From Adineta vaga (lineage: Eukaryota > Animalia > Rotifera), in the NCBI GenBank assembly GCA_021613535.1, contig CP075492.1, positions 16,740,001 to 16,804,000 of the forward strand: a DNA stretch of 64,000 nt, given 5' to 3'. Both the position numbers and the translations under genes were made by a program. The number at the start of each line of letters is the position of its first letter. Position 1 is the stretch's first letter. Positions 18,667 to 61,032 of this stretch are shown piece after piece. Below the pieces are notes generated by a model, which did not search any database, was not told where the DNA came from, and saw only the letters and a list, made by a program, of their open reading frames with translations.

Positions 18667-19006
18667 TCAGTAAACGCGGTCTCAAAAACCGCCGAATCGC
18701 GGCAGTGTTCTGCCTTTTTTTTTCTCGTGGGTATCACACAACAAATATTGACAAGGAGAGGAAAAAACATGACATCAAGGTATATTTGATCAGTGATAAA
18801 AGAGACAAATATGCCAAGAGAAAAGTTGTGTTTTGTACTGTACTTCTCTTTCATCTATCGTCTTTTTCTATGAAATCCGACACTTTGTAGAAGAATCCAC
18901 TATGAAGAAATGTTATTCACACCGAAGACACAGAACTCGTATGTCTTTTTAACATAAGTGGCGGAGCATTAGTTACCGCAATTGAGAATTCGAAAAAGCT
19001 GTTGAA

Positions 19007-20761
19007 ATGGCTTGTTCAGGTCCAATAACAGACAGCTGTATTGGTTGTGACGATGATACACCGACCTTTAAACCAAATATTCGAGAAGAGGAACTCCTGA
19101 GTTTTTTCTGGAGAAACTTCTGGAATCTCAAAAGTGAATACGACAAACGCAAACAATACGACAAATCGGTCTTCATTATTGACGTTCGTTTGGATCAAGA
19201 AAACATCGATAGAGCCAAGCCAGTATATTATGGAAATGGGCATTTCAAAGACGAAGAATATGCAAAAAGACAACCGTTAGATGCCATGGCATTTCGGTAT
19301 CAAGGATTAGGTATATACATCCTACCCAAAGAGTGTCCGAAGAACTTCGGAGCTTTTCGAGAACACGTTCTTTTGCTCACAAGTGAAGTGCTCAAAAAAC
19401 CGCTCAATGACTTTCATTTTCGCCATCTTATTCTTGTCGACAACACAACTACGTGTAAAACAATTCTCAACGAGATCAAGCGGCTCAGTAAGGAACATCA
19501 ATTCTACTGCGAAAATTTGGCCGAGAATAAAGATTTATCAGTTAAAAGTTTGAAACCCTTCGATCCACTGAAGTACGATGGAACATACAATAATCCGAAC
19601 AATATCCCAAATATTGTGTTAGTCGTTACGGTTAAACCTTATGAGATAACAATTTGTGACCAGAGTAATGATGACGACTTGGATACGCCTGCTGATGCAT
19701 TTCTTCTCGGCATTCTCGCTAGTAGACGCCCAGTTCGTACGGATAGATATTTCGGTGACGCCAGCGATGAAGATGATGGCGCTTCTTATTTTTTCATTCA
19801 ATACTTTTTGGTCGACGAAAAACATCGATCGAAGGGTTTCGGATCATTTATCATACGGTCATTATTGAATTACTTAACCTCTCTTTTTCCGAAGAAAGAT
19901 GAAATGATTTGTGAAGTACAAGCGTCACCATATGCGAAGGAATTTTGGGAAACACTTGGTTTTTGCGCATTGCAGAACCGCAGAAATGACGAAGATGTGA
20001 TTACGATGAGTAAGAGAGTAGAAAAGCCTCCTTCGGCAATAGAAACGTACATAGCTACACAGTACCGCCAATTAGCACGAATTTTGGGTTGTACTGGATT
20101 AAACTCTCCTCAGACAAATGCTGAAAACAATGTTGAGGATTGTGTCCGAAATACTATGCGAACTCTTAATGACTCAGCGGAAAAATATAACGCTGTACCG
20201 TTCAGAGATATTATTAAGAATTGCAAAGAAGGCGGATCACTTTATCTTCGAGCTAAGACTTTAACTTCTGCTGACGTATTAGTTGTTGTCGAGCTTGGAT
20301 TACTTCAGAAGAGAGTATGCTTACTTGATTTGTCATTCAATCCTGGCATTGAAAGCAAAGGTCTATTGCTACTTATTGACAAAATAAGAGAAAACACATC
20401 GCTGACAGATCTGATACTCGTAGCAAGTGGTATTGATAATAGAATTGCCCTTCAAGTCGCGAATAAATTAAATTCCACACATATCAGACGTTTAGATCTG
20501 GCCAACAATGAAATTGGAGACCAAGGTGCAATTGCACTAATGACGTCGCTATGGTCGAGTCATAGTTCCCTTTTATATTTATCGCTTGCCAACAATCGGA
20601 TTACTGACGAGTTTATACATTCGATCGACATCAAACTTCATGATGCAACAGTTTCCAACAAAAAGATATGCCTTCGTGGAAACCTCTTTACTCAAAATGG
20701 ACAAGAACGTTTGATAAAGATCGTTGCTACGAAGTACACCGGTCTCGAAATCGACGTCTGA
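19007..20761 (+). CDS. GNAT acetyltransferase domain fused to C-terminal RI-like LRRs
   Basis: GNAT motif A FLVDEKHRSKGFGSFII and motif B ASPYAKEFWETLGF. LRRs LDLSFN, LDLANNEIGDQGAIAL, LSLANNRITD. 584-aa open frame. Confidence 0.75.
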   Translation: MACSGPITDSCIGCDDDTPTFKPNIREEELLSFFWRNFWNLKSEYDKRKQYDKSVFIIDVRLDQENIDRAKPVYYGNGHFKDEEYAKRQPLDAMAFRYQGLGIYILPKECPKNFGAFREHVLLLTSEVLKKPLNDFHFRHLILVDNTTTCKTILNEIKRLSKEHQFYCENLAENKDLSVKSLKPFDPLKYDGTYNNPNNIPNIVLVVTVKPYEITICDQSNDDDLDTPADAFLLGILASRRPVRTDRYFGDASDEDDGASYFFIQYFLVDEKHRSKGFGSFIIRSLLNYLTSLFPKKDEMICEVQASPYAKEFWETLGFCALQNRRNDEDVITMSKRVEKPPSAIETYIATQYRQLARILGCTGLNSPQTNAENNVEDCVRNTMRTLNDSAEKYNAVPFRDIIKNCKEGGSLYLRAKTLTSADVLVVVELGLLQKRVCLLDLSFNPGIESKGLLLLIDKIRENTSLTDLILVASGIDNRIALQVANKLNSTHIRRLDLANNEIGDQGAIALMTSLWSSHSSLLYLSLANNRITDEFIHSIDIKLHDATVSNKKICLRGNLFTQNGQERLIKIVATKYTGLEIDV

Positions 20762-20897
20762 GAGGAAATATGATTTCAAACTGTTAACGTCAACGAAGTG
20801 TACTAAATGCCTGACATTTTGTTTTAAACCCTCTCCCGCAATAAAAGACCTTCCCGGATTAGAAGACCCCCTGGAGGAAATTTTTCGTAGTAATTTT

Positions 20898-20936
20898 GTG
20901 TGGGTGTGGGTGCGAATATCCTCTTCACCCACACTC
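20898..20936. repeat. Telomere-type inverted-repeat element
   Basis: gtgtgggtgtgggtg-N-cacccacactc. Confidence 0.75.
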
Positions 20937-21278
20937 TTATCGGTGAAAACAGACTAAGTCTGCACGACGTATGAAAAGTGGTAGTTAATCTCTTTGTTTT
21001 TACTCTCTTTCAAGGTCAATGACACAAAAAAAGTTGAAAGTGATATTATTCCATCGTTTCAGAAGAACGTGAGCTTAGGTAAACATGATAGTTTTGTGTC
21101 TACTTTTCCTCTAAAATTTTCTTATTAATATTCATACCTACTAATATTTCGTCGGTCGATTTCAAAAGATCATTTTGTGTATGATTTAAATATTGCTTAC
21201 ACACCATAAATATTTATCTTATCATCTTATCGGGTGAATGGATAGGTATGGCTGTGTTTCATTTAAATATATCAAAGA
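20937..21278 (+). repeat. Direct repeat copy 1 (342 bp) of a local duplication
   Basis: Near-identical to 25160-25435 apart from a 66-bp indel. Confidence 0.95.
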
Positions 21279-21350
21279 GTTAGCATATGTGCATATGTGG
21301 AGTCAATTCACATATTTACGAAGATTGTAAACCCTTTTTAGACGGCATAG

Positions 21351-21540
21351 ATGGGTGTGGGTAGTATATAGAGAAAACCCACACCCACACCCTCATTGAA
21401 ACAATTGTGTTTTGTGTTAAATAATTAAATAAAGAGAAGATCTTCTTTTCTTTTGATATTCAAAGTGATTTGAATTCGAAGATAAACAAAATTTGAGGGT
21501 ATGTATCTAGGCAATCTCGTATCCACACTAACACCCACAC
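21351..21540. repeat. Two telomere-type inverted-repeat elements (21351-21396 and 21493-21540)
   Basis: atgggtgtgggt-N-acccacacccacaccctcat and ttgagggtatg-N-cacccacac. Confidence 0.7.
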
Positions 21541-21690
21541 AACATGTATCAGATCGGGAGAGATTTTTTTTCTGAAAGATTAACAAAATCCATTTCTTAT
21601 TTATAGATATTCCAAGAAAAATCTTCGATGAATATTAATACACAGAGAAAAAATTGAGTATACATTAAAAGGAGTTTTATAGAAATTGTT

Positions 21691-22047
21691 CTATGCCTGT
21701 GTTACACTTTTCGCTTCACATGCGACAATTTTAACTTTATCGACACGAGGTATTTGTGGAGTTGGAGCTGCTGTATTATGTTGACCTTGATTACTTTCTT
21801 TAACAAGAAAATCTTTTAATTCAAATGTCCAAACATTGTCACAAAAACGATATGTGCTTAGTTTTGCCGAAAAATGAATTTTTTTATTAATTCGTTTATC
21901 AACGGCTAAATTAATTGCACGGTCAAATTCACTTAAAACTATACCAGCTGCTTTTTCAGTCAATTGACCTGATGAAATCATTTGATCAAGTATTTCTTGT
22001 AATGTCGTACCTAATGTTGTTTTACGGTAAAGTTGATAGTTGGCCAT
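21691..22047 (-). CDS. GTF2A2: Transcription initiation factor IIA gamma subunit (intronless)
   Basis: MANYQLYRKTTLGTTLQE..., EFDRAIN, YRFCDNVWTF, VDKVKIVACE. ATG at 22047. Confidence 0.95.
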   Translation of the reverse strand: MANYQLYRKTTLGTTLQEILDQMISSGQLTEKAAGIVLSEFDRAINLAVDKRINKKIHFSAKLSTYRFCDNVWTFELKDFLVKESNQGQHNTAAPTPQIPRVDKVKIVACEAKSVTQA

Positions 22048-23702
22048 TCTTTTGGTAATTTGTAATAAGTAAATTTTCTCCACACCCTCGAGAGCACGAC
22101 ATCTACTGTGTCTTTACACTTTCCATATACAACCAATTCAAGTATCACATCAACAACTATCGAAAACTACTAGATCCCTCGATGTCGCATATAATTTCTG
22201 TTAAACTTAACCTTTGAATGTGTACAGTTCATATCTACGATATGTTACTCATTACATAAATCAAATCAATCCGCATCCTTCTCTCGTTAATCATCGAACT
22301 TATTTTGGTTAATTAATACATACAAGTGATAAAATCATCAAAAGAATTCTAACAAAAAGAAGAGGAAAACTATCAGTTTCGATTATTAATCAGATTGGAT
22401 CTACGCTAATTTGGTACAGATATTGATATTTTTCAATTAATCAAGAAAAAAAGATTGTTTGTCGAGTTATCGATGTTTCTATCGATTATAGTATCAGTTT
22501 AGAGTGATGATGGCATATCAAATGTTACGATATTCTCATGCTTATTAATTTCCGAAGTTGTCAAACTCAATCTTTTAGTATAGGACAATATTTTATTGAG
22601 GGAAAAGTCTAATAATTTATAAAAGGGTAACAGTTGATTGTTGATGATTAAAGAAAATAAGGAGATTTAAGGGTGATCATAAACTAGATCATCCAATAGT
22701 CGAATGACTCTTTTTCTTTTCGTTCTTTGAACATGATATACGTAAAGATCTCTCCCGATCAAATAAATGTTGCGATGACGATGACATGCGGACTGGTGAT
22801 AATACTAGTCTGCCATAGAGCAACATTTTTCTATAAATCAAAAGTAAAGAAAGAACAATACTGTAGTCTAATCATGTCTGTTTCATTTTTTATATTGACA
22901 GTAATTCATTCACACATGGTATTTACAAAAAAACACAAAGAATAGGGAAGAAAATCGTGCACTTCACTATCGCGATTAGGCCACGTGATGTTTTTCTTCA
23001 TTCTTGTGAAATATTCATCGTCGATGACTCATACTGAATAATGTGGAAATTTTCGAAAAAGAATAGCTGATTCTCTTTCTCTCTCTTGTATAAAAAAAAT
23101 GTAACATGTACTATGGCATGGTGAAGAAAACTGATCGCTAATCCTATCTCGATTGTCTTGAAGATAAATATGGTACAAATATAAACGAATCTAAAGAATA
23201 AAACCGATATCTATGTTATTTCACGTTCGATCGACCAGTAAGTAACGTATATACTCGATACATATTACTGTTTACTTCAATGGAATCCAATATATTTCAT
23301 CTATTCTTGTGTTGATCGATTTTTAGCTCTTCGTCATATATATATACAAAAACAAATATTGCCAAATAGGCACATATGTGACTATAAATAAGGTATGTCT
23401 TTACTGAAAAAGACTATCTGACATCGTTTGAATAGATAGCTGATAAACACATAATTTGTGTCATTAAAAGGAAATTGTATAAAAATAATGTTAATGTATG
23501 TTTTTTCACAACTGGTCTATTAATTTTGTTTCAAAAGGTTGCCTGTGGATAACGAACTTTAGAATATGCAAATCTTTACTATGTTTCTCTCCATACATTT
23601 CTTCATTGTTTAGAATATTTATTTTCTATAAATCATATAAATTTTTCAAATTTTGTTGTAATTATGAAATAAGAAAGAATTTTCATCTCGTTTTTATGCA
23701 AA

Positions 23703-23760
23703 AATAAATGCGGAAACCTCGGATTTAAATCCGAATGTTATGTGTACTTCAACAAGTGAC
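23703..23760 (+). repeat. Second copy of the 5' end of the HINE-like element
   Basis: aaatgcggaaacctcggatttaaatccgaatgttatgtgtact matches 15604-15645 with a few mismatches. Confidence 0.6.
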
Positions 23761-23860
23761 AAAAGATATTCATTTTGTATATTTATTATTATTATTTAAG
23801 CTAAGTAAGAAACGAGTTCCATGACAGTTCCGCGCCGACATTACTGCGCACGACACTACC

Positions 23861-23914
23861 ATCTTGAGGGTGTGGGTGTGGATCTTTTCTCTTTCACTCT
23901 CAACTATACCCACA
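23861..23914. repeat. Telomere-type inverted-repeat element
   Basis: atcttgagggtgtgggtgtgg-N-tatacccaca. Confidence 0.7.
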
Positions 23915-24186
23915 AATACTCGAATACTTCAGCTAGTTATAAGTAATTCGATGACAGTTAGATAGAAGTCTGAGATTGATAAAAAAAATACAGCTTTTAT
24001 GCAACTGCTGGACTTCTGGCGCACGGAAGTATACTGTTTCACTCTTGGCTAACGTTTAATGTGTTTGTCGCAAAACAAGAATGTGTTTAAGACATATCAT
24101 GTTGTTATGACACATTATCATCTTTATTCGCCAAGAAAAAAGAACTGTGATAAATGAGAGTGTCATGACCAAACGTAAAATATGTT

Positions 24187-24928
24187 CTAGGGTTTGATCC
24201 AGGTGACTGCATCGAGTTCATACGTCCCCGTTCGTTGACCTCTGCATCTATCTTCACACCAACTGATCGTGCCAATTTTCCAAGCTTTACCACTGTGAGT
24301 ATCACAGTCTTGGGTGATACATTGCATGTTTTTAGATTTTCTCTTGTTGTAATGAACTTTCTGACCATGACAAAGCTTGTTACCGCCCTGTGTTACGTAG
24401 CCCAGTTTATTCGCAATGCTTGTGGCTTGAGGCGATGTTAATGCACCATCTTAAATGAAATGAACAATATTGTTTCATACAATACAATGCTGTATCGTAT
24501 CTTATTATAGTATCCATACCGCACCCATACCCTTCCTTATTGAGATCTGATTCTATCCACAGATAAGAGTGTGTATCTAAAATCTAAATTTCTGAAGGAA
24601 ACTGATAGGCAAAGAGTTCAATATGAGTTCTGGATAAAAAAAAACTATTGCAACACTCGTCTCATACATCTATGGATGCCTTCTCTTTTAATTTTTTAGT
24701 TAAGACCTAAACGTTCTAGAAGAAAGGCTCACTTATACGAAGAACAAAAAGACTTTAGTTTCTTCGATGGATATGAGTTGGTCAAGCAGTTGCTAATCAG
24801 GTAAATGAACAGCTTTCTCTCGTGACAACATTGGCTAGTTCTAAATTCTTATACGTACCACAAGCACTTTCACATCGCATGCATAGGAACACAACCAGGA
24901 GGGCAATGATAATACTTCGATGCAGCAT
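24187..24928 (-). CDS. Secreted Ntox21-like (CdiA-CT ECL / BECR-fold RNase) toxin-domain protein, 110 aa, exons 24928-24859 and 24449-24187
   Basis: Spliced product MLHRSIIIALLVVFLCMRCESAC-D-GALTSPQATSIANKLGYVTQGGNKLCHGQKVHYNKRKSKNMQCITQDCDTHSGKAWKIGTISWCEDRCRGQRTGTYELDAVTWIKP*. The phase-1 GT(ACGT)...TTTAAG intron restores the frame. Motifs KLGY, HGQxV, ITxDxDxH, WK, RxGTY. Confidence 0.75.
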
Positions 24929-25014
24929 AATAACAGCGGTAATCAATCAGTGATAAAAATATTGGCTAACGCGTTTAATATCGTAATAAAGTGAAAGTAA
25001 CGAGAAATAGAACC

Positions 25015-25021
25015 TTTTATA
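25015..25021 (-). promoter_or_regulatory. Candidate TATA box for the toxin-domain gene
   Basis: TATAAAA on the minus strand about 90 bp upstream of the ATG at 24928. Weak evidence in an AT-rich genome. Confidence 0.3.
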
Positions 25022-25159
25022 AATTTCGCACGTAACCTTGAAATCGATATTACTCTACAAGTATGTGCATGAGAGATTAGTCTGTTTAAGACAATGAAAT
25101 TTACCGATCTACCTGCGCCGAAAACGATTTTTGTGGTTCGCCGATACTGGCAAGCTACG

Positions 25160-25435
25160 TTATCGGTGAAAATAGACTAAGTCTGCACGACGTATGAAAA
25201 GTGGTAGTTAATCTCTTTGTTTTTACTCTCTTTCAAGGTCAATGACACAAAAAAAGTTGAAAGTGATATTATTCCATCGTTTCAGAAGAACGTGAGCTTA
25301 GGTAAACATGATAGTTTTGTGTCTACTTTTCCTCTAAAATTTTCTTATTAATATTCATACCTAATAATATTTATCTTATCATCTTATCGGGTGAATGGAT
25401 AGGTATGGGTGTGTTTCATTTAAATATATCAAAGA
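25160..25435 (+). repeat. Direct repeat copy 2 (276 bp)
   Basis: Matches 20937-21278 but lacks 66 bp between aatattt microhomologies. Confidence 0.95.
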
Positions 25436-25723
25436 AGTTTGGTCCATTTATACAAGTAATTCAATCTGGTAAGGAATTTAAATATTCTGTTTAAATTGCA
25501 CACTGAGAGAAGTATTTATAGACAAACAAACAAGCGCCAACAACAATTAAATATTATGAATCCTTGTGAAGCGGCGAAGACAAAGAGAATAAATATTGTT
25601 AATTCTTCTATTTACACATTTTTCGTAATTTGTTTATGTATTAACATTCGAATCAGACGAATATCTCTATTCTAATTTCCGACAGGATCTTTGTAATTCA
25701 TCAGATTAGAAAAATATATAACT

Positions 25724-27283
25724 TTAGTATAATAGCCAAAAACTCGCAGGTAATAGATTGCGCATAGATTTAAAGTGAGATTCTGCTACAAACCATTCAA
25801 TTTTATGCTGATCAATTTTTTCATAATTTTCAGGCTTAGTAAGTTGAATTTCACTTGATCTAAGCTTTCTAAATGCGCTCTCGGAAGCGCGATGGTGATT
25901 GTTTTGACCATTATTGTTCTTATAGTTAGATATATCAAATTGTAGCAGTTCGTCGCTTTTACTGGCAAAGAAAATAAAGTTGACAAGTGCGTCAGTTTTA
26001 ACTGAATTGATACCGCCTTCACAAAAACATTTTATTTGTTTGAAAATACTTTGAAGTTGTTGAATAACACTATGTAAAACTTCCATTTGAACCGTAGAAA
26101 CCATGTTAAGTACTAAAATACCATTATTAGATAGTATCCTAAAACAGTTGGATATCAACTCTTGCATATAATTATTACGCATGAGTGAACCACTGAACAC
26201 ATCGTGCACAATTAAGTCAAATGTATTATTGTCTTGGATTATAATAAACTCCAGACCATCTGCATTAATAAGTGAGGCATTTTGACTTAAACCAAAGTAT
26301 TTAGAGGCAAAATTAAACACATCGGCATTATTATCTACAACAATTACTTGATCAAATTTGCAGCGATTTATGAGCGCATCAACGACGATGCCAACTCCAC
26401 AGCCAATAACTAAACTATGCTTTTCACTTGATTTCGGACTAGATGTCATCCAAGGCACATGGCATGCCAACTCATACCAGTAAAAAGTCTCAAACACCGA
26501 TTCAAATCCTTCATTAAAGACACCACCAACAATGCTATGATCTATACGCATAATTTTTACATCCAGTTCATGATCATTAACTATAGTAACCAAACTTGTA
26601 GACAATGATGAATCGACAAGCTCAAAGCTGGAGAACTTTGTAATAAATTGACGTTTTAAGTCTGGATAGAAAGTACTAATCAATAAAACCAAGCAAAGAG
26701 TAACAGATTGGAATTTCGAATTGAACTTTGAGCGTAAATAGCAGATTTGAATTAAAGAAATTGTGGAAATAATTGAGCGTGTATAAGCTAGTATAATTCG
26801 ACACATTAGTAGAAGTTGATTACCATGGAAAAATCCAAGCCAAGTACACGTAACCACACAAATAATAAATGAATATATCATAACACGTACATGCATAGAT
26901 TTTGCGAATTTTGAGAGACCACAAACTATCAGACCAAAGCATAATCCTACTGGTACAGAAACAACAAAAGTCAGACATAGAGAAGCAGAAATCCAGATCT
27001 CAATAAAAGAAGGAGACAGTAAAGCACAGATATCAATCAGTATAGTACGCAATACAGTCAACGTAAGTATTAACGTGAAAAGTGAAACAGAACTTGCAGA
27101 AAATACACAAGTTAATGTAATCAAGCCAATACTTGCAACTAAAAAGGGAAAGTTAAGAATATTTGAGAAGAAACTGCCAAACATTATGGTCACACTTATC
27201 CGACCATTCAATATACAGTCAATAACACACAAAAACCCGAAGAAAGTCTGAAAAAGGGATTTTACAATATTCAAAAGATCCAT
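25724..27283 (-). CDS. Multi-TM protein fused to a spermidine-synthase-like SAM-dependent methyltransferase domain (intronless)
   Basis: N-terminal hydrophobic helices, RIDHSIVGG, motif I LVIGCGVG, VVDNN, ADG, FDLIVHDVFSG, GILVLN. Confidence 0.8.
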   Translation of the reverse strand: MDLLNIVKSLFQTFFGFLCVIDCILNGRISVTIMFGSFFSNILNFPFLVASIGLITLTCVFSASSVSLFTLILTLTVLRTILIDICALLSPSFIEIWISASLCLTFVVSVPVGLCFGLIVCGLSKFAKSMHVRVMIYSFIICVVTCTWLGFFHGNQLLLMCRIILAYTRSIISTISLIQICYLRSKFNSKFQSVTLCLVLLISTFYPDLKRQFITKFSSFELVDSSLSTSLVTIVNDHELDVKIMRIDHSIVGGVFNEGFESVFETFYWYELACHVPWMTSSPKSSEKHSLVIGCGVGIVVDALINRCKFDQVIVVDNNADVFNFASKYFGLSQNASLINADGLEFIIIQDNNTFDLIVHDVFSGSLMRNNYMQELISNCFRILSNNGILVLNMVSTVQMEVLHSVIQQLQSIFKQIKCFCEGGINSVKTDALVNFIFFASKSDELLQFDISNYKNNNGQNNHHRASESAFRKLRSSEIQLTKPENYEKIDQHKIEWFVAESHFKSMRNLLPASFWLLY

Positions 27284-28007
27284 AATTAATGTTAGAACAA
27301 ATTGAATATAAAATTAAAATCACCAGAACTTTATAACGATTACTATATTGAATATGTTATTGTTGTATGTCCAATCTTGCTGGAACGAATATCATCAAGT
27401 CAGAAATAATCTGTAAAGTGTCGAAAAATCAGCACCAAGCAGTTTCGTTTTTCTTTCACATTTTTAGTATTGGGGCAAAGGGATCCTTTTTATTAAGTTA
27501 GATAAAAACAACTATACTCACTAATATATATTCATGTGACAATATGCAGGTGCGCTTTAATTTTTTAAAATCTTGTTCTGTTATGCTTTACTCTATCAGA
27601 ACTTACACATGTAAAAGTAATCCAAAGTGGTAATCAAGGTTCTCTCAGAGTGTGTGTAGGTCTGATTCATCTTACGATGACTAATCTTTCGTAAGTTGTT
27701 CATTGTTGATTGGGTGGAGAAGAGGGTCATTCTCATGCAGTCACTAATTGAAAGGAATCAGTATTTAAGAGAGGATCTGCGAAACCACTATCCAGATGCC
27801 CATAACTCACACCTCTTGAAAATTTAGAAATTCAGATCTTTTGCTGGAATCTGATATTCTCAGCCTAAATTCAGTCGTTTTGAGGTGCGGTTGATACCAA
27901 ACGATAGAGAAAAAAATCCACTACAATACTAGCTCATAGATATGGACTCCTTACATTGCTAAAGGCTCTGCCACACAAAAAACTTTCTGTCTTTACAAAC
28001 AATTAGA

Positions 28008-29270
28008 TGCATTAAATTCAGTGATTTACCTGACGAAATCCTTATGATTATTTTCAAGAAGCTGAACAATCTTGATGTTCTTTATTCTTTACAAGGTGTC
28101 AATCAACGAATAAATAAATTTATTCAAGATCGAATTTTTACTAATCGTTTAACACTTGTCATATGGTTATCAGATCATTTTCTTGATCTAATTTTATAGG
28201 TTTATTTAGATCAAAATCTATCATCTTGTATGTTCGAAAAACAAATTAAAACACTTTTAATTACAATTGATAATAGCCGAGCAATGTTAGATACCGTTGT
28301 AAATATAGTTGATGATATTCTCACTGTTTTCATCAGTCTAAATGATTTAATATTATACGAATCATTCTATAAAAATCGTCTACGCTTATTTTTTCGCAAC
28401 CCACCATCACCAAAATTTCGTTCGTCAACTCTTCAAAAATTGAATATTAGATTACAATGTATGAACGATTGTCTTTATCTTCTCGATGGTCGATTTGATC
28501 AACTTCAAACACTTCACGTTGATTTGATTAATCTTTGTAATTCAAAAGGGATTCAAAATCATGTTAGTTAATCTTTGTCTTCTCAATTAACAAACTGAAT
28601 TTTGTTTTTTTTTAGAAAGACTTACCAAATCTAAAAGATTTTTTTTCTATCATCGAGCGTCGAAAGTGATACTTATAGTGAAACTATTCTTCCTCTTCTC
28701 GATCGAATGTTTAATCTCGAAGCACTGAGTTTGTATCTTGCAGTATGTGTTAATGAAAAATTTATTGATGGAAATCATTTGATGAATGATATTATCGATT
28801 ATATGCCATGGTTAAATCATTTTTCATTTTATATCCGATCAGTAATGCGCCTTCCAAATCAAATCAATTTACCATCGACAAAAGATATTCAAAGTACATT
28901 TGTTAACTTTTCTAATCATACAATTATCTCGTATGTTGATTACTTTCAAAAAGCAGAGCAAGGTCAATGTCATATTTATTCATATCCATCTTTTACCCCA
29001 TATTATAATTTAATCTCAAATAATTTTCCAGATGGATTATTTAAACACGTTCGTGCAATATCCTTATATGATGAACATCCTTTTGAACATGAATTTTTTC
29101 TTTCAATCAGCTATGAATCATTAAAATATGTTACACATAATTTTACAAGAGATGATACTCGTATTAATTGTGCTAAAATAAATGAATTAGAATTATTTCC
29201 TGCATCACAATGTACAAATGTTTCAGGAGATTATTTTCCGAATGCAAATTTATGTTTCTTAGAACAATAA
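28008..29270 (+). pseudogene. Bdelloid-type F-box/LRR-like protein gene, apparently internally deleted or degenerate
   Basis: F-box SDLPDEILMIIFKKLNNLDVLYSL, then DCLYLLDGRFDQLQTLHVDL and LYDEHPFEHEFF. The frame is interrupted near 28198 and the start is unclear. Confidence 0.6.
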
Positions 29271-29360: not shown

Positions 29361-30358
29361 GTATACCATATGTAGTTGAATTCTCAATCTATAATTAAAT
29401 TAAATTGAAGAAGAAAACGAGAAACAAGAAAATATTTTTTTTCTTTCTTGCATACGATCGTCGAGTGGCGACGTGCATCAGACTTTTTTTTTCTGATTGG
29501 TTACTCATATTTATCCACTGATGATATACGAAGAAAAACACAAAATACCAATCTTTTCTTGTTCTCCAGTCTCCACTGCATATATTATATAATGTTAAAC
29601 TATCAAAGAAACGAAAGAATCTACTGATTATTAGTCAAGTAATATTGAATCATGTTACTACTGTAGTGAAACATGTGAGATAAATTTTCAGATCTTATTT
29701 CTTTCATTTTTAGCACCTTCATTGTAGTTAGATATCTAAACAGTTTCCTATGTGTCTATCGTAAGAGTACGAAAACTGATTGGCATTATAGATATACATA
29801 GCGTCGCCATACAGAAGATAAAATAAACTAATCATTTTTTTTCAGCTTTTGAGGAAATAAATCACAGATTATATTGTATTGAATGAGAAAAGCATAGAAA
29901 AATACTTTCTTGTCTATTACCATCACAATGAACAGTTTTTGATTTGACGTTAACAAGCACATCTTTTTTGAGTATGATGAGACTTAAAATACTTGGATGA
30001 AAGTTTCCTAGAATAGAATCAGAAAACTAAGTTTGAATTTCGATAAAAGTTGCATCCGACTAATAATGTAGCGTCTTTTATAAGATTTTACATTTTACTA
30101 TTTTTTTTCAAGGATTCAAGATGCGATTGATTTCCTTCAGCCTCTGTTTTCAACCTCTGTCACATTTATTAGCATGCATCGCACATCATTTCCAACATTT
30201 TAAAAGGACCTGTTCAGTATAGCGATCACTTTCAATCGAGAATGGAAGAGAATAAGACGGATCGCTTTTTGATACTGTTTGAATTTTGAAAACAAAACTT
30301 ATTGTAATGCTAATATATTCTTCTTTAGATTTTTTATTCGTTTGACTGAATCGTGAAC

Positions 30359-30886
30359 ATGTTTATTCGTCACACATTATCATCCTCCCGTATTCGTATG
30401 AATAATTTTTCTCTATTATCGAATCTTCATTGGCCTTCACGTTTTTCATCGTCATCTACACGCAGCAATGGTTCAGTTACACATGGAAATCCATCTGATC
30501 CTCTCATCACTGTCTGGTGGGATAGTTCATGTCCTCTCTGCTTACGTGAGATGAGCTTAATGAAAAAATGGGCACCTCCTGAAACAATTGCTTTTGTCGA
30601 CATCGCTTCACCAACTTCAACGTGTCCCATCGATCGTCGAACAATGATGGCCAGATTTCATGTTCAAGAACGCGGTGGACAGATGGTTGATGGTGCAGAA
30701 GCATTCGCACTTCTGTGGAAACATATTCCACGAATGCAAAGACTCGGACTCTATTTAACTAACAGTCCGAAAGCATTAAATACCTGTGAGAAATTGTATT
30801 CGAATTTATTTTTGCCCTACCTTCGACCAGTATTTCAGAAGAGTCTAAAGTGGTTGGGAGTAGAAGGAAGAAAATATACATCTTGA
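30359..30886 (+). CDS. DCC-family thiol-disulfide oxidoreductase (DUF393-like) with probable mitochondrial transit peptide
   Basis: VWWDSSCPLCLREM (DxxCxxC), FVDI, ARFHV...GAEAF..LW. Arg/Ser-rich N-terminus. Confidence 0.85.
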   Translation: MFIRHTLSSSRIRMNNFSLLSNLHWPSRFSSSSTRSNGSVTHGNPSDPLITVWWDSSCPLCLREMSLMKKWAPPETIAFVDIASPTSTCPIDRRTMMARFHVQERGGQMVDGAEAFALLWKHIPRMQRLGLYLTNSPKALNTCEKLYSNLFLPYLRPVFQKSLKWLGVEGRKYTS

Positions 30887-33367
30887 GAGTGTGAATAGTG
30901 ATGCCAGTATTATATTATCTGTGTGTAAATGAATGTATTCAATAGTCGATATAGACTTTTCTTGTCGCGACAATCAAATGCATTTAAAACATTTACTTTC
31001 TATTATATTTATGTTATCTCTTTTAAATGATTATTTAACAGAAGGCAGAGGCTCTTTCTTAAGATTTGATGGTTTTGAAAACTTTAATAATATTTTCCAA
31101 GACGAAATTAAACAAGTATAAATGAAGCATCCAAAGTAAAAATTTGTGAATCGAATTTTAAACAAAAAGATGATAGATAAATAATTGGTATGAAAATAAG
31201 TTGGCGTTAGATGAAGAAATACTGTCGAAGTTTATTTTTACTTTTTCTCAGATATTATTACGGAGAGAGTAATTGAAGATTGAATTTATTTTTGCTTGTG
31301 CGCATATTTGTATTAAATATGTCTCATTTATTAAAATTGAATATGTAATGTTTAGTACGAAATATATGATGAATAAAAAAAACTTATTTGAATTTTCTTA
31401 TGTTGATTTTACGACAGAGTCAAATATATTTGTGTGCTTAATATGTTTAAAGAATATTTGTTCTGTAAAAAAAAGAAACACCATCACATGAAAGATGACT
31501 TTTTTTTTGGCATATAATAAATCTCTCTAAACAAATTTGCACAGTCAACTGTACGACAGAACAGAAAATGGTAGGCTAATGACATGTACTTATATAATAT
31601 TCGGAACGTCTTGAGAGTATCCCGAGCAGACCAGAAACGCATCCCTCAAATGTTCATTCTTCAATCGCTTTCGCAGTTTATTTTCAAGTAGCACTGTAAG
31701 AAAAGATAAAAACACGTTTTAATATTATTTTTCGTTTCACTTGAATTATTAGAAGAAGTATTTAGACTGAGAACATCGTATTGTTATTATTAAGTTCTCA
31801 GTGCATAGTATACGTATTAATTATCGATCGCTGACGGTTAGATATCACTCGCCTGTTTCCAGCGAGCAGTAGGTGACCGCAGTGATTAAAAGTTGTGTTT
31901 GTTATAAATGAAAGAAAATAATGGATTCTCCAGTTCTTATTAGTTCGTAGGAATTTTCAAACGGAGACAGTATTCTCTACTATACTAATAAGTTAACGTG
32001 ATAGTAACCAGAATACAGTAACGAACTAAGATTCATTTCGCTTCTTAACGTATCATCACTACATCTTTTCGCAAATTTGGTGTTATATACCATCACATTC
32101 ATAATCTTACTGTCGGCAACTGATGCTATATTAATTTGTTCAATGAACATTGTAACATCAGTGTCAAAATTAAATGGTAAGACACCATGATCAATTAATA
32201 TTACTATATACTAATATATCTTATTCACTGTATAGATCACACGTGTCTCTCTTGAACAGTATAACAACAATCATCTTTTTTATCTGCTTCATTAAAAGTT
32301 TCGATAATATGTTATTTCAGTTTTTATTCTTTTTCACATCGCCTGATATAAATATTGATAGGATTCATTATTTGATCACATTTCAAAAAAATTTTCTTTC
32401 CTTCTGTCTGTTTTTTCGTCCTCCCTTTTCTTCTCGTTTATTTGATAAGTCACTTGTTCTTCTTCTTCACGAATTCATTTGTGTTCTGTTTTGTTGACAG
32501 AGACTGGATGCCTAACGTATGTATGCTCACTCCATTTTTTTCAACTAGAATGAAAATCACTTTAAGAGTCTCTATATGTAATGGATATCTCGCGCAGGTG
32601 TAAGAACGATACCATAACAAATAGATTAAATTTTTTTCTACAGCAAAAATCATTCCAAATGCGACGAAGATAAAAGCACTTATAAAATCGTTAATAATCG
32701 AGAGTTTTTGTAAAAAATTAATTTAATGCTCACATTACGAGTAGCCCTGTCGGATGAATTGTTTGACACAGCTGAGTTTTCTTATAAGCGAAGAAGAAAC
32801 TTTAACGTATTGACAGATAAACGAGCTATACAACAGTCATCAACACTCTAGAGGAAAACAGATCGAGAATCTTACACATACTAGAATATAGTAAAAGTTC
32901 ATGTATAGACTTTGCCATAACTTGATCGCTTCGAAATAAATTTCGATATTCTGAAACTCAGCGACACAAAGCTAAATTTAGCACTACAAATCGTAAATAA
33001 CACCGCACCTACCAAAGTTTGGATTTTAGTTTTCTAAACATTAATAAACTACGTAGTTAGAATAAATCGTCTTTTGCCAGTTTCTTTCATTAATCGCTGA
33101 GTGTGTCGTAATATTTAAAATATGTTCACTGGTCCGTAGTTATTTTAAATGCGAAGCTTAACTCTATAAATAATTGAATTACCTTCCTATTGATTAATTA
33201 TATCATTGTCATTTTATCATTTACGTGAAATGTATATTAACTGTTAACAAGTGCTTTCATCGAACTGCAAAAACAGTGCCGGTTTCAACTAGTGCAACCG
33301 TTGGGATATGTACAGCATAGAAGGTTGACATTCATTTTCTTCCAATATTCTATTACTGTTTGTAGTA

Positions 33368-34546
33368 ATGCGTTGGTATAATACTCTGCTTGTTATTATG
33401 GGTATATCAAGTTTATTGATAGCATTCATTTCAATAACTTCTCTTACAGTAACATCTTTATTTCAAGCTCAAACGAGAATTTTATCGAACCAATGGACTT
33501 TATCAGCTCGAAATAAGCAACGTTCGGTTAAATTATATGAAAAATATAATTTATTACTAAATATAACAGCATTTAAAACAAATGACTTGTCAGATAACAC
33601 AATGATTTATTCATGTCAATCATTTTGTGGTGGTTGGGGTGATCGATTACGTGGAATTTTATCTGTTTATATTCTTGCTTTATTAACAAATCGTCATTTT
33701 ATGATTGATATGAATTATCCTTGCGAAATTTGAAAAGTCCTTCAACCTAATGTTGTTAATTGGACATATGTTAAATATCAGAAATCAAAAAATCGGACAC
33801 GTCTAAATATAAATACAATGCGTTCATGGCAAACATCAATTCGAAATGAAATAGCAAATACGATTAAATCAAAAGATTTCGTTCAAATTTGGTCATCATA
33901 TAACGATATAGTTATATCGACTAATAGCGATTATATGACACCAGCATTACATAATAAGTTTGTATTAAATCAAACTCGCAAATTACTTGGTCGACTGCCT
34001 CTAGCACAAGCGACAATGCAAACATTATTTGCTTTTCTTTTTGAACTTCTTTTTACTCCTTCTATTTCTGTTCGTAATCGAGTTGATACAATATTAGCTG
34101 CTTCTCGTCATCGGCATCTTATCTGTTTACATATACGTCTTGGTAAAAATCCAACAAATCCATTCGATCATGCATTTACATCTCGCGTGAATACAACAAA
34201 GGCGATGTTAAATTTTACTGATAATTATCTATCAAACAAATCTTCATCATTAGTTTTTGTTACATCTGATAGTGGCCAAGATGTATCAGATGTCTTACAT
34301 CATTATCCAAATTCATCGATGACTATTGTGGGTCCTATTTTACATATTGATCGGTTCGATCGGCGGTCATCCATTATATGTGATGGATTTATTAAAGTAC
34401 TTGCAGATTTTTATCTTTTAGGCGAGTGTCAAACTTCGCTGTTATCAAATAGTGGATTTTCATCATGGGCAAATCGAAGAAGAGAAAAACCAAATGAAGA
34501 ATTGTATATGTATGATGAAAAGTTTAAACAAATGAGAAAAAGTTAA
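33368..34546 (+). pseudogene. Type II membrane fucosyltransferase-like glycosyltransferase with an in-frame TGA at 33731-33733
   Basis: N-terminal TM, CGGWGDRLRGI, CLHIRLG, FVTSD, DFYLLGEC, SGFSSWA. The two ORFs are in the same frame and separated only by one TGA. Confidence 0.75.
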
Positions 34547-38826: not shown

Positions 38827-40517
38827 ATGAAATCTAAAGTGATAGGATCTCTTCTTCTTCTTCTAACAGTTCAATGTTGTTCTGGTTCAGCGGATGTTTA
38901 TACAGATGAAATATATATTAAAGATAATTACAATCGAATTCGTATTTATCATGGTACAAATTTTGTTACTAAAAGGATTTCCATGGTATCCACCGGAATT
39001 ACTTGATGTAAATTTTGTTGCAAATATGTCATCATGGGGTCTAAATTTTGTTCGACTTGGGTAATTTCATAAGATACAATTTCTTCTTTTATATTTTTCT
39101 ACTTATTTTCTTTTTATAAAAGAATGATGTGGTCAGGTATTGAACCAATTGAACGTCAATATAATTATACTTATTTGAATATAATGAAACAAATTATTGA
39201 ATTACTTGAAAAAAATCAAATTTATGTTTTACTTGATATGCATCAAGATGGTTTAAGTAGTCGAACAGGCTTGTATGATGGAATTCCCGGCTGGCTTTAC
39301 GATAAATTTCCAGCACCTTCTCATCCATGTATATTTCTTTCTTATCAATTAGAAGAATAAATAGATTACATTTTTATTATTTTTAGATCCATGGCCATTA
39401 AAAAATGTGTCAAGTTGGTTTCTTAAGTAGATTAAAATATAAAAGTAAATCATTTATTTAGGACTTTTTTCTTTTTTAGTTATTTAACTGAAGCATGTTC
39501 ACATGGTTTTCAATGTTTATATGATAATATTGCTGGTGCTACTGAATCTATGAGCAATTTTTGGCGTTTAGTTGCAACAACATTTAATTCCTTTTCGAAT
39601 ATATTAGGATATGAATTAATTAATGAACCATGGGCTGGAAATTATCTTACAAATCCTTTTGTACTTTTACCTGGTATTGCTGGTTCAAAAAATCTTCAAC
39701 CATTATATGATAAACTTGCAAAAGCTATTCGATCTGTTGATAATCAAACATTAATCTTTTATGAACCTGTCACATGGGGAGGTTTGTTCAAAAAGACAAA
39801 ACAAGGAAGTTTCAATTTCATTTTTGTTTGTTTGTTTGTTTTATAGTTCGATTGAATGGAAAATATTTGGGTAGTGGATTTACCCATGTTCCTGGTGGAA
39901 ATGATTATCGAAATCGTAGTGTGTTTTCTTATCATTATTATTGTTCAATTTTACAAATTGAACCTGTTCCCGGTAATGAAACAATTCCAAGTTTTGATCG
40001 AATTTTATGTGATGATATCGAAGGACCAGCTTTGTTTGATTCAACTTTGACTGATGTAAAGCAATTAGGTGGTTCATCATTTCTCACTGAATTTGGTGGA
40101 TGTGGGGATTCGCCAGAACCATCATGCGATGAACAATTTCAATGGGGAATGACAAATGCAGATAAATATTTTCAATCATGGGCTTATTGGGGGATTATTT
40201 ATAACGATATGAATGCAATTAAACAAATAACTCGACCCTATGCTCGTGCTATTGCTGGTCAACCAAATACAATGCAATATGAAATTGATACAAAAATCTT
40301 TCTTTTAACATATACAATTGATTTGTCAATTAAACAACCAACAGAAATTTATATTCCATCATTAGTTTATCCAAAATCAAATTATAATGTAACTGTAAAT
40401 GAATATATTCAATGGAAAATTGATCCAATGAATCCAAATATTATTTTAATTGAACCAATTCAACGATATTTTTCGAAAAATGTTTTGGCATCAATTAAAA
40501 TTATTCCAACTGCTTAA
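38827..40517 (+). CDS. GH5 endoglycoceramidase-like glycoside hydrolase (multi-exon; one extra A at 38971-38974 shifts the frame)
   Basis: Signal peptide, RIYHGTNFV, FVRLG|MMWSG, LLDMHQD, GYELINEPW (acid/base), LTEFG (nucleophile), RPYARAIAG. Confidence 0.85.
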
Positions 40518-50134: not shown

Positions 50135-53100
50135 ATGTACACATTTTTAACATTACCTATCGAACTCGTTTATCGAATTATGGATCACCAAAGTGATTTT
50201 ACACTGTTTTGTTCAATGCAAAATGTTTGTCAACGTTTTAATCAAATTCTTAACACTTATCATCGATACCAAGTAAGTTTGCTAAATGTTTAACTATCCT
50301 TTTGTCAGTTGTACTACACATGACTCTAGTGATATCTTGTTTTATGAATTTACATAAACACGAGACGAAGTAATTTCATGATCCTGAAGCAATTCGAAAG
50401 ACTGAGTCAACCATAACATTGATTCATGTTACGAAAAACAACCACTCCTTCATTCTTTTCGTTCTAACTCGCCGGATAAAACAAAATGAACTCTCTCACT
50501 AATCAGTTGTCATAACGATCATTACCAATCATTACGAAAAACAAAATATCCTTTTATTGAGTATCTTAGGTAAAAGTTAGATATATGTTTTACCGTCAAT
50601 AAACCCATACCACTCACGATGACTAATGTCTGGAAATTATCTATAATAATTCTCCATTCAATCATTTCATAGGTCTAAACTTGCAATTCTCTGTGTAGAC
50701 ACTTGATACATTAGATCTTACAGCGCAACAAATCCGTGATCTAGAAGGACAATATATTGGTAATGCATTACGCAACAACAAGGTAATATTCATTCACTGT
50801 TCATACAACTCCTGTTCATATTCTCTCTCACGTCTACAGACACTCATCACACTGGATCTCAGCCGAAATCTGATCGCCGATGGAGGGGTACAATATATTG
50901 CTGATGGTTTACGAACCAATACGGTAACATTCATTGAGTATTTACAGATTCACACGTTCATGCTATCTCTCATCTTCATAGACACTCACCACACTACATC
51001 TTCGCAAGAACCGAATCGATGATCAAGCAGCACAACATATTGGTGATGCATTGCGAATCAATAGAGTAATGCTCATTCGCTTTTCATAAAACTCATACAT
51101 TCACGTTCTGTCTTGTCTACAGACGCTCACTACATTGTATCTCAAAGGAAATCAAATCGGCCATCAAGGAGCACAACATATTAGTGATGCCCTGCGAATA
51201 AACAAGGTAATATTCATTTACTCTTCATAGAACTCACATATCCATGGTCTATTTTTCTCTTCTATAGACACTTATTACACTACATCTTAGCTTTAATGAA
51301 ATTGGTGATCAAGGTGCACAACATATTAGTAATGGATTAGAAACGAACACGGTTATATTCATTTACTATTCACAGAACTCAATCATGTTTTCTTTCTCAT
51401 ATACAGACACTCACCAGACTACATCTAAGTTCGAATCAAATTGGTCATGAAGGAGCACAACATATTAGTAATGCTCTGCGAGCGAATATGGTAATATTTA
51501 TTCACTCTTCACTGAACATACATACGTGTACTCTCTGTCTCGTCTACAGACACTCACCACACTATATCTCAGCGAGAATCAAATCAGAGATCAAGGAGCA
51601 CATTGTATCGGTGATGCCTTGCGATTGAACACAGTAATATACATTCATATTCTATTTTTCACAGAGTTGCTAAATTGAAATCTTTGAAATCCGGAGACTT
51701 TATTTCAAAGTTCGACAGCTATAAGATGATTTGTAACATGTAAGATTCAATCATTCTTTTTCATAACAGACATCCAAATAGGTTTCGACTTCACATTAAA
51801 AAAATGATAGTATCATGGGATTTGCAATGTGATCGAGACGACATGCGATTATGATCAGAAGATTTTGATAATGGAGAGGTTCAAACAAAGACACCCTATA
51901 AATCTACAACAAAATTCATCGTAGCTCTTTACAAGATCAGAAATTATTTTTTGTGCTTTTGCGATAAGGAACCGATATTTTATCTTAAAATGTAGTCATT
52001 ATAAGTGATTTTATAAGATTTACATAGCATGCTTGTATCCTATTAAATAAAGATTCATGATATTGATTGTGAAGAGTTCATATTATTATTTTCAAGAGAT
52101 GTTTCTTAAAATCAAAAGTTTGAAATACAGTAAAACCTCTGCATTTGCCGTAGCTAACGCTATAATCGTTACTGAAAGGTTTCATCATGTAGATTTTTGA
52201 TCTAGAGATCATTTTAGTTTTCAAAGTCCTAATTTTGTTTCAAATAGGTAGAATCAAGAGATTTTCTGTCAGGAGGAAAATAAGAAAATTTGGATGTGTG
52301 GTAACAATGGTCTTTTGTTAACAGACACTAATAAAACTAAAACTCGACAGTAATTATATCAGCAGTCAAGGGGCACAACATATTAGTGATGCATTGCGAA
52401 TCAACACGGTAATATTCATTTAGTTTTGACAAAACTCACATATTCATGTTCTGTCTGTTGTCTATAGACACTCACCATACTAGATCTCAGCCACAATCAA
52501 ATCGCCGATCGAGGAGCACATCATATGGGGGATGGCTTACGAATAAACACAGTAAGATTCATTCACTGTTTGTACAACGCAGGCATCTATGTTCTTTTTC
52601 TCTTTCGTTTAAAGACTCTCACCACGCTAGATCTAAGATATAATCAAATTGGCCATCAAGGAGTACAACAAATTGGTGATGCATTACGAACGAATATGGT
52701 AATATTTATTCACTTTTCACAGAAATCACGCATTCACGATCGCCCTTGCTTACAGACACTCACCACACTCGATGTTAGTTCGAATCAAATCAGTGATGAA
52801 GGAGCATATCATATTGCTGATGGCTTGCGAATAAACACGGCAATATTCATTTATTCTTCACAGAGCTCATATATCCATACTCTCTCTTTCGTCTACAGAC
52901 ACTTACCACACTACATCTCAGCGAGAATCATATTGGGCATGAAGGAGCAAAACATATTAGTAATGCTTTGCGAGTGAACACGGTAGCATTTATTCACTCT
53001 TCGTATAACTCACACACCCATGCTCTCTCTCTCTCTCACGTTTACAGACAGTCGCGACACTACATCTCAGCTATAATCAAATCTCCAATCGAGGAGGACA

Positions 53101-53853
53101 ACATATTAGTGATGCATTAAGAATCAACACGGTAATAATCAGTTACTGTTCATAAGACTTTTATTCATGTTCTCTGTCTTGTCCACAGACGCTCACCATA
53201 CTACATCTTAGTTCGAATCAAATTGCCGATGAAGGAGCACAACACATTAGTGATGCATTGCAAACGAACACGGTAATATGCATTCACTCTTCACAGTACT
53301 CACACACTCATGCTCTCTTCCTCGCGTCTATAGACACTAACCGCACTAGATCTCCGATACAATGAAATTGGAGATCTAGGTGCACAACATATTCGTGATG
53401 CATTACGAATCAACACGGTACTATTTATTTATTGTTTGATGAACTCACACATTGATATTTTGTCTCCCGTCTACAGACGCTCACCATACTACATCTCAGT
53501 TGGAATCAAATTGCAGATGAAGGAGCACAATACATTAGTGATGCATTGCGAACGAACACGGTATTACTTATTGACTCTTCATAGAATCCATACATTCATG
53601 CCTCGTCTCTCGTCTACAGACAGTCGTTACACTAAGTCTTTCTTGGAATCAAATCGGCGATCAAGGGGCACAACATATTGATGATACATTGCGAACGAAC
53701 ACGGTAATGTTCATTCAGTTTTGAGAGAAATTACATATTCATACTCTCTCTCCTCTACAGACACTCAGTACATTATATCTCGATAACAATCGAATCGGGC
53801 AACAAAGAGCTCAACATATCCAGTATACTTTACAAAATAGGATGGAAAGTTAG
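50135..53853 (+). CDS. F-box + RI-like (NLRC3-type) LRR protein with 18 single-LRR exons
   Basis: Exon 1 (50135-50272) has F-box FLTLPIELVYRIMD. Then 84-nt phase-0 exons (TLTTLxLxxNQIGxxGAQHIxDALRxNT) from 50699 to 53703 and a final exon 53761-53853. Confidence 0.85.
50699..53853 (+). repeat. Tandem array of about 140-bp exon+intron units, interrupted by about 650 bp of unrelated sequence (about 51660-52320)
   Basis: Both exons and introns (gtaatattcattcac...ctctcgtctacag) are mutually similar. Confidence 0.9.
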
Positions 53854-54369
53854 CTTTGGCCTGATGGAGATTGTCTCGTGATGTTTTTTTTGAATAAGTG
53901 TGTCATGGGAAGGAGATTTATAAGAAGAAATATATATCGTGTCCTAGGGAGTTGTGTTATTTAGATGATAAAATGTCTTGTTTTCAAGGCAAGATTTTCT
54001 GTCGGAAAAGTGAATTCGTGGTTAAAGTTCATGTAGATGTATAGCGTGCCTGTTAAAGCAAAGTGTCCTTTATGGAATAGAGTATAGCCAAAGGGAGAAA
54101 ACTGAATTTTTGATTGCACTGATTTTTCTTCTCATGATGACAATAACTCAATAACAAACAGATGGTGTTAATATATTTATGGACTATCATGCGATACCAA
54201 TAAAATCTCTATTGAGTTGATGAAAAATCATTTTTATTCTAAAATAATAAAAAAACAAGAGAAGATTGTTTTTGAATTTAAAATGATGGAAATTAAATTA
54301 ATGAGATAAATGCTTTCCTAATATAAATATAAAAGTCTTCTAAACGAAATATCGAATATTTCTTTTCAA

Positions 54370-54424: not shown

Positions 54425-54652
54425 CAAATAGGCATTTCTGCTACGTTACGTTGAATAGAGGACAAACTTTTTTGTTTATTTGCAAATGTATGAATTTCTG
54501 CATAGAATGAAAGAATCGAGGGAGTTACAATCGTGCATGTGTCTGAAACTTTACTTCATTTATAAAAACAACTGCAAATTCAGTTTCTATCGAAAGCACA
54601 AATATTTTACAGTGTACATTCTTTTTATACGCACGCGTCGAACAAAACAACT

Positions 54653-60600: not shown

Positions 60601-61032
60601 TATTTTCGTTATATCAATGAAATTTCAGATCAAAATATTACTAATGAATTATTTCATGTTTTAAATCTTCTTTCTTATCATATGATTTCACAACGATTTA
60701 TAGATTTATTGAAATTAATTATTCATCTGGTAAAAAATAATCTTATGTCTATGGTTGAAGTTCAACAACGAATTGGATTATTTGTAAAAAGAATTTCTGA
60801 TGGAAATAATTCAACTAGATGGGAAAATGAGAAATATATCTATGATACTTTAATGAATTTAACTTCTTTAGAAAACAAAATTGTATTAAAATCAAATATT
60901 GATTTGATTACAGAAAATGAAATTCATCAACAATATGAAGGCATTTATCAAAAAATCACAAAAGAATCAAACTTATTTGTTAAAAGCAATTATTTCGTAA
61001 ATAACTTTCAAAAGAAGATGAAAGATTTTTGA
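54653..61032 (+). CDS. Large NACHT (STAND) NTPase with long helical C-terminus, 2 exons (intron 55549-55733)
   Basis: Walker A VILGDPGSAKTT, RIPILIR, Walker B LILLDGLDEI, LTSR, NPILLSLI, FLHLSFQEYFVA. The phase-2 intron joins the two ORFs in frame. Confidence 0.9.

Follow-up and report, generated by a model that had tools for sequence, protein, structure and literature searches.

A spliced Ntox21 gene with a predicted secretion leader in the bdelloid rotifer Adineta vaga belongs to a family likely acquired from bacteria

The window analysed here is a 64,000-nt stretch of the Adineta vaga genome (GenBank assembly GCA_021613535.1, contig CP075492.1, positions 16,740,001 to 16,804,000), which has 31% GC and eukaryotic gene content. 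On its reverse strand lies a small two-exon gene whose second exon encodes an Ntox21 RNase domain (Table 1). The coding parts of the exons sum to 111 codons with the stop, and thus to a protein of 110 amino acids (aa). A first-pass annotation, made from the letters alone, had proposed two exons, a 409-nt GT-AG intron and an uninterrupted 110-aa frame, and this structure proved exact, including the quoted peptide and the signal-like leader. GC content is 45% in the exons versus 34% in the intron, and the gene is present in one copy among the 1,932 stop-to-stop segments of the window. Residue numbers below refer to the 87-aa product of exon 2 (P0001) unless the full protein is named.

Table 1. 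Coordinates, in the window, of the Ntox21 gene, its parts and the adjacent TFIIA gamma gene.
Feature	Position	Strand	Remarks
5' UTR, minimum extent	24929..24938	-	X1 contig starts at 24938; contigs cannot reveal the true start
Exon 1, coding part	24859..24928	-	70 nt, 23 codons and one base; last full codon Cys23
Intron	24450..24858	-	409 nt, phase-1, GT-AG (ends GTACGT ... TTTAAG)
Exon 2, coding part	24187..24449	-	263 nt; Ntox21 RNase domain (87 aa = P0001) and TAG stop
PF15526-matched stretch	24211..24420	-	P0001 residues 11-80
Codons D48, D50, H52, K58 of P0001 (= D71, D73, H75, K81 of the full protein)	24277..24309	-	by alignment to 4ntq_A
3' UTR	24086..24186	-	poly(A) loose ends of X5 and X8 mark several sites, 24086-24105
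AATAAA polyadenylation signal	24123..24128	-	single; about 20-40 nt ahead of the poly(A) sites
TFIIA gamma subunit gene	21691..22113	-	2 kb downstream; Pfam E 2e-17 and 5e-16

The transcript evidence comes from four of 17 sequencing runs, none of them of DNA type. In one of these four (X1), a 428-nt contig joins 24859 to 24449 exactly and skips all 409 nt of 24450-24858, so that the spliced transcript predicted in the first-pass annotation is indeed found; the other three runs hold no contig that bridges the junction. Contigs of X5 and X8, runs from two further studies, carry poly(A) at 24086-24105. Since an exact GT-AG skip together with poly(A) is the pattern of mRNA, we take the X1, X5 and X8 contigs to be transcripts. 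In run X7, which bears a second organism label, the intron is read through unspliced at depth 4, and the sequence differs from the window at five places in 250 nt, with both of the exon differences synonymous. The Ntox21 gene is thus spliced and polyadenylated, an intronless DNA copy being formally possible; the runs were typed as RNA by guess. At 24340-24341, X1 has two adjacent base changes that replace Arg by Asn at residue 37, in a basic loop; A. ricciae has Lys at this residue, and the X1 variant is a possible allele.

The TFIIA gamma gene next to the Ntox21 gene is a eukaryotic core gene, which argues against bacterial contamination. A methyltransferase and an F-box frame lie upstream of the Ntox21 gene, and GPCR-like, Kelch, NHL and leucine-rich-repeat (LRR) sequences are found elsewhere in the window. 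Of the 47 frames within 20800-28200 that reach 45 aa, 17 were scanned, and neither these nor 30 longer frames from the window gave a match to an immunity protein family, in a scan by frames that small spliced or distant genes could escape; this agrees with the earlier remark that no immunity gene is evident.

The TFIIA gamma and Ntox21 genes are bracketed by a 99% identical direct repeat (blocks of 213 nt and 70 nt) at 20937-21278 and 25160-25435, its only two copies in the window, which lie 4.2 kb apart. Between its blocks the left copy carries some 60 additional bases, and the right copy is found 230-500 nt ahead of the Ntox21 start; the repeat could be a recent local duplication, a small mobile element or an assembly effect. 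At 39436-40517, 33329-34546 and 30350-30886 we noted a glycoside hydrolase 5, a weak GT11/fucosyltransferase match and a DCC1-like oxidoreductase, families whose origin is often non-metazoan. A 591-aa frame (18986-20761) combines a GNAT acetyltransferase domain with LRRs. The regions 54566-61032 and 50680-53900 hold a weak STAND NTPase match and then a 1,773-aa frame without a Pfam match; the STAND-like region adjoins an array of approximately 143-nt repeats that encodes LRRs, and may be an immune-receptor-like locus.

Ntox21 (PF15526) is the only Pfam family matched by the exon 2 product, over profile positions 1-65 of 71, with an E-value of 1.4e-8 and 35.4 bits against a gathering cut-off of 25. 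An Ntox21 toxin of known activity is CdiA-CT of Enterobacter cloacae ATCC 13047 (ECL; PDB 4NTQ), a 16S rRNase that is reported to cut between A1493 and G1494 with the active-site residues D203, D205, H207 and K214 (PMC9086364), at a single 16S site (PMC9304027). When the PDB was searched with a profile of six members of the bdelloid clade described below, this toxin (4ntq_A) was the only match among 177,635 sequences, with an E-value of 0.029; the best match to the single sequence was at chance level (E 1.1). In the alignment of the clade profile to 4ntq_A, D48, D50, H52 and K58 correspond to D203, D205, H207 and K214, so that all four equivalents of the catalytic DxDxH...K residues named in the first-pass annotation are kept, and a Cys (position 49) stands between the two catalytic Asp residues. 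Zhang et al. 2012 (PMC3482391) also list RxG[ST] and a terminal RxxD among the motifs of Ntox21. The former is present (R73-T-G75-T76), and the latter, the one listed motif that the window protein lacks, is absent from all six rows of the subfamily to which the window gene belongs (subfamily C, see below). This absence had been raised as a caveat before, and we give it little weight, since RxxD lies outside the ECL active-site residues and, by a crude pattern count, is likewise missing in 17 of the 102 bacterial-type relatives that have RxG[ST].

A structural model made from the alignment reached a pLDDT of 87.7, and one made from the single sequence (pLDDT 35) was unusable. The predicted model matches the fold of 4NTQ, with its N-terminal helix and antiparallel sheet. 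Foldseek placed 4ntq_A first with this model (probability 1.00, with an E-value of only 0.02), and VIA-align, run against 48,161 chains, placed 4NTQ first (Z 8.6, rmsd 2.1 over 68 residues) and colicin E3 second (Z 4.0). The fold match is not independent of the family assignment, given that the modelling drew on an Ntox21 alignment and did not succeed from the single sequence. Profile, predicted fold and active-site residues together identify the window protein as a member of Ntox21, in agreement with the family named at first.

In the spliced contig, the domain is preceded solely by the 23-residue leader, and there is no N-terminal delivery or trafficking module. The best 9-residue segment of the leader, from residue 6, has a hydropathy of 3.8, and this hydrophobic stretch predicts that exon 1 encodes a signal-peptide-like leader and that the protein is secreted. 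The pI is 9.25 and the net charge +6. The mature chain had been expected to contain about six Cys; five are encoded by exon 2, and the sixth (residue 23, in exon 1) would be included only if cleavage, judged by eye, precedes it.

We found at least 38 relatives, by searches and cluster look-ups, that share the segment [WY]KxGxxxW with the window gene (for the P0008 cluster, 15 of the 23 members were taken in). This Trp-bearing, clade-specific segment after the catalytic Lys occurs in 39 of 39 clade rows, in none of 104 other proteins and in none of 20 GTDB bacterial loci, a count that is partly circular because the clade was named once the signature had been seen. Among the matches listed, 15 clade members carry an organism name, and all are bdelloids (A. 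ricciae 2, A. steineri 6, A. vaga 1, Rotaria socialis 4, R. magnacalcarata 2). A branch with support of 100/97 separates 30 clade rows from the rest in a tree of 78 rows, made after 13 of 91 rows had been removed because they were duplicates or fragments. A quick tree of 71 rows, in which 17 clade rows stand beside 54 of 96 bacterial-type rows and more long bacterial relatives are included, gives the 17 clade rows an SH-aLRT of 95. The clade alignment spans only about 90 columns, and the trees are unrooted. Conservation in a related species, on which the initial reading depended, is borne out: the nearest protein, from A. ricciae, is 93% identical over exon 2, with a different, non-hydrophobic modelled N-terminus.

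Three subfamilies can be distinguished within the clade. Members of a signal-less subfamily, from Rotaria and A. steineri, have 91 aa, hardly any Cys and no hydrophobic leader, and in most cases carry the full motif, RxxD included. At one such locus (L001), two in-frame stops stand ahead of the ATG, behind an acceptor-like tract, so the signal-less form probably has no leader. Subfamily B (A. ricciae P0022, the fused A. vaga model P0107 and further rows) has a leader in the two rows whose start looks complete. Its four Cys are at positions 27, 34, 44 and 68, and Thr replaces the D205 equivalent in six of six rows. Subfamily C consists of the window gene, P0003, P0004 and the P0047 cluster. It has Cys at 27, 44, 65 and 69, with a fifth at 49 in the window gene and P0003, and the D203 and D205 equivalents are kept in all six rows though the window protein and P0004 are only 47-48% identical; its leader is clear in the window gene only, the starts of the other rows being truncated or doubtful. 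Subfamilies B and C group together (unstarred support 98/74; 83), and these secreted subfamilies have four to five Cys, whereas 22 of 25 signal-less and 94 of 104 bacterial-type rows contain no Cys at all. Candidate disulfide pairs are 27-69 in both secreted subfamilies, 44-65 in C and 34-44 in B. As subfamily B has lost D205, the secreted members of the family may be moving away from an rRNase function; the lack of RxxD throughout subfamily C and the Cys between its catalytic Asp residues also speak against such a function in the window protein. The conversion originally envisaged was not a single recent event: the family is old and bdelloid-wide, with three subfamilies, to one of which the window gene belongs.

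Two database models, P0107 (A. vaga) and P0003 (A. ricciae), fuse an exon of the secreted subfamilies to unrelated upstream exons (of a PAN-domain gene in P0107), so small Ntox21 genes are probably hidden from screens for horizontal gene transfer (HGT). The A. steineri models P0051 and P0100 consist of a truncated Ntox21 domain and a tail that by eye resembles a PD-(D/E)xK nuclease and has no Pfam match, which could reflect a gene-model error or a polymorphic-style fusion.

Outside the clade, all relatives are of bacterial type, namely Rhs, HINT or haemagglutinin tips, or stand-alone cassettes. Taken with PMC3482391, where Ntox21 is listed from bacteria only, this makes transfer from bacteria the plain reading, and the bdelloids probably gained the gene in this way early in their history. 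The marks of stable integration are all present (intron, poly(A), eukaryotic neighbours and occurrence across species). The bacterial origin and integration among animal genes claimed earlier are thus supported by the Pfam match, the bacterial-type outgroup and the surrounding genes. No bacterial donor with the clade signature was found among 40 longer relatives or 20 GTDB loci. Phages gave no match, nor did viral contigs (none of 18 candidates), a metagenome scan gave one locus from 64 candidates, and the ESM Atlas gave bacterial Ntox21 clusters only (one search having a low recognition score). A group of bacterial-type, 113-aa stand-alone proteins (P0054, P0059-P0065, P0101-P0105) consists of a signal peptide and Ntox21 without a stalk, a minimal secreted toxin layout.

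The best trees, the shared signature and the position of a phase-1 intron right behind the leader favour one transfer with later gain of a leader exon. Two transfers, with a separate origin of the secreted forms, are a less favoured alternative: forcing subfamilies B and C together with bacterial-type signal-peptide Ntox21 proteins costs 12-15 log-likelihood units and is not rejected by the AU test (p 0.20, 0.21). The suggestion that a toxin was stripped of its stalk and then gained a eukaryotic signal peptide is therefore the more probable course, the bacterial secreted layout being a less likely source of the leader.

We consider it an even call that the window gene encodes a secreted cationic antimicrobial RNase, which from its sequence is predicted to cut decoding-centre rRNA in microbes. 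Trees and shared signature suggest one transfer before the Adineta/Rotaria split, after which duplication gave rise to one form without a signal and two that are secreted. The latter would be exported via the endoplasmic reticulum, and the cysteines restricted to the secreted subfamilies are predicted to form disulfides. By homology, the enzyme would cleave helix 44 at A1493/G1494 independently of metal. It would have to enter the target cytosol without a delivery domain, most likely through cationic interaction with membranes, or by acting on cells in the gut (food or pathogen) already damaged by other enzymes. Entry is the weak step of this mechanism. Known Ntox21 toxins enter cells by CDI, Rhs or BetaH/ABP modules, and the window protein is without any of them. 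A precedent in favour of the mechanism is offered by ABP systems, whose Sec-secreted cationic Ntox21 toxins are reported to diffuse and kill (PMC13460014), though with a BetaH helix that the small, basic window protein lacks.

Secretion had also been suggested as the means by which the host is protected. Rotaria and A. steineri, however, have paralogs that lack a signal and keep the full motif; these weaken the idea, and secretion cannot generally explain life without an immunity gene. Either the rotifer 80S ribosome is not a substrate of these paralogs, and immunity is needless, or the host itself can be a target of the family. Both the host and fungi are conceivable as targets, since cleavage of 18S rRNA by colicin E3 has been reported for eukaryotic ribosomes in isolated form (PMC4639596). 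A broader proposal is tentative, and we lean against it: that bdelloids domesticated, before the Adineta/Rotaria split, a family of decoding-centre ribotoxins, with a cytosolic form that would act in their own cells without an immunity protein and disulfide-stabilised secreted forms that would enter bacteria or fungi without a stalk.

The window protein shares with CdiA-CT of E. cloacae its Pfam family, its predicted fold, 32% identity over 68 aligned residues, the equivalents of D203, D205, H207 and K214, and RxG[ST]. Unlike that toxin, it has no CdiA stalk, no CdiI partner found nearby and no terminal RxxD, and it has an intron, a signal-like exon, five to six Cys and the Trp-bearing segment after the Lys. 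Since there is no stalk, the window gene is not a polymorphic toxin system. Colicin E3, which carries receptor and translocation domains, cuts the same 16S site as the ECL toxin and came second in the fold search. Like the fungal ribotoxins (alpha-sarcin type), it is a small secreted RNase of the wider BECR assemblage (PMC3482391), a likeness that extends to the window protein with its predicted secretion, but the fungal ribotoxins are another family, and their cut lies in the large subunit, at the sarcin-ricin loop. The ABP and S8-PTS toxins of Gram-positive bacteria (PMC13460014, PMC9424270) are described as diffusible, cationic Ntox21 warheads exported by a signal peptide, which resembles the predicted export of the window protein; however, the window gene has no BetaH, no co-secreted S8 protease and no immunity gene in the frames scanned, and its host is an animal.

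Domestication of bacterial toxins by animals is itself a known kind of event. Dae2 of ticks, a type VI amidase effector, is likewise an interbacterial toxin in an animal genome that is secreted (as predicted for the window protein) and duplicated, with an antibacterial role proposed or shown (bioRxiv 10.64898/2026.03.13.711553). By contrast, the target of Dae2 is peptidoglycan outside the cell, whereas that of Ntox21 is intracellular rRNA, and the bdelloid family adds a signal-less form. The window protein would thus resemble the domesticated effectors of the Dae type in its mode of working, its target being RNA inside cells. EndoU, teneurin Tox-GHH and the Het-C of Adineta vaga (PMC3417536, PMC3482391) are also toxin domains recruited by animals, but they belong to families different from Ntox21; Het-C had already been noted in a bdelloid and is the only such domain mentioned in the Adineta toxin-domain literature consulted. 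According to PMC9304027, ribotoxins of the ECL/colicin E3 type had not been reported in eukaryotes as of 2022. No description of Ntox21 in rotifers was found in the open-access literature searched, and neither Ntox21, PF15526 nor IPR028190 occurs in 15 of the 16 supplementary files of PMC11258130, where GO and BLAST labels could hide the family. The automatic names in UniRef already give an Ntox21 domain label to Adineta and Rotaria proteins.

Several other explanations have to be weighed against an antimicrobial rRNase. That the gene is an artefact, through bacterial contamination, a chance frame or a decaying pseudogene, is highly improbable. The odd or fused N-termini of A. ricciae and A. 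vaga database models (P0003, P0107, P0100) and the Arg-to-Asn difference of X1 at residue 37 could be read in this way, but this reading is contradicted by the spliced and poly(A) contigs and by the relatives in several bdelloids: the intron is canonical, the neighbours (TFIIA gamma, GPCR-like, F-box) are eukaryotic, the frame is open in relatives from five named species, and both exon differences in the second organism are synonymous. We think it unlikely, but far less so, that the protein is a secreted RNase of relaxed specificity, which would degrade free or viral RNA in the gut or body fluid, for nutrition or against viruses, without entering cells. Such a role would fit the retention of the active-site residues where the delivery module is absent, and the C-terminal tail and post-Lys segment are remodelled relative to bacterial members, which could alter substrate binding. 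On the other hand, the characterised relative is reported to cut a single 16S site (PMC9086364, PMC9304027), and general RNase activity of Ntox21 was not found in the literature consulted.

It is also quite unlikely that the domain serves as a defensin-like scaffold, i.e. a cationic, disulfide-stabilised peptide that binds or kills microbes by way of their membranes or cell walls and in which the catalytic residues are structural. The small size, the pI of 9.25 and the capacity for up to three disulfides are consistent with such a peptide, as is subfamily B, where the D205 equivalent is gone and four Cys stay at fixed places; however, subfamily C keeps four catalytic residues at approximately 47% identity, which exceeds what a purely physical action would need. 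Finally, there is a decidedly small chance that the target is the rotifer's own RNA or cells rather than microbes, by translation shut-off, death of infected cells or a teneurin-like extracellular signal. The persistence of the signal-less, full-motif paralogs and the reported action of colicin E3 on eukaryotic ribosomes would agree with this, and so would the strong induction of foreign RNA ligases in bdelloids upon fungal infection (PMC11258130). Yet the signal-like leader of the window copy would separate the protein from host ribosomes, and conversion of the teneurin type was, as described in PMC3417536, accompanied by loss of catalytic residues, unlike in the window gene.

Known domesticated antibacterial toxins in animals mostly act from outside the cell, on its wall. 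A putative ribosome-cutting tip that has no stalk and no immunity gene in the frames scanned raises two questions, namely how it enters its target, and how the signal-less paralog spares or hits host ribosomes. The three subfamilies (no Cys and full motif; four to six Cys and an intact site; four Cys and D205 lost) form a natural series for the path from an intracellular toxin to an extracellular effector. If antimicrobial, the protein would give bdelloids a weapon of attack directed at RNA, beside their other foreign genes for defence, among which RNA ligases are some of the most induced genes upon fungal attack (PMC11258130). If the broader proposal above is true, eukaryotes would have in this family their first counterpart of colicin E3 and CdiA-CT of E. 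cloacae. The family could then be a source of 40S damage of the kind whose repair is predicted for eukaryotic RtcB2 ligases, and could perhaps explain why RNA ligases are strongly induced in infected bdelloids.
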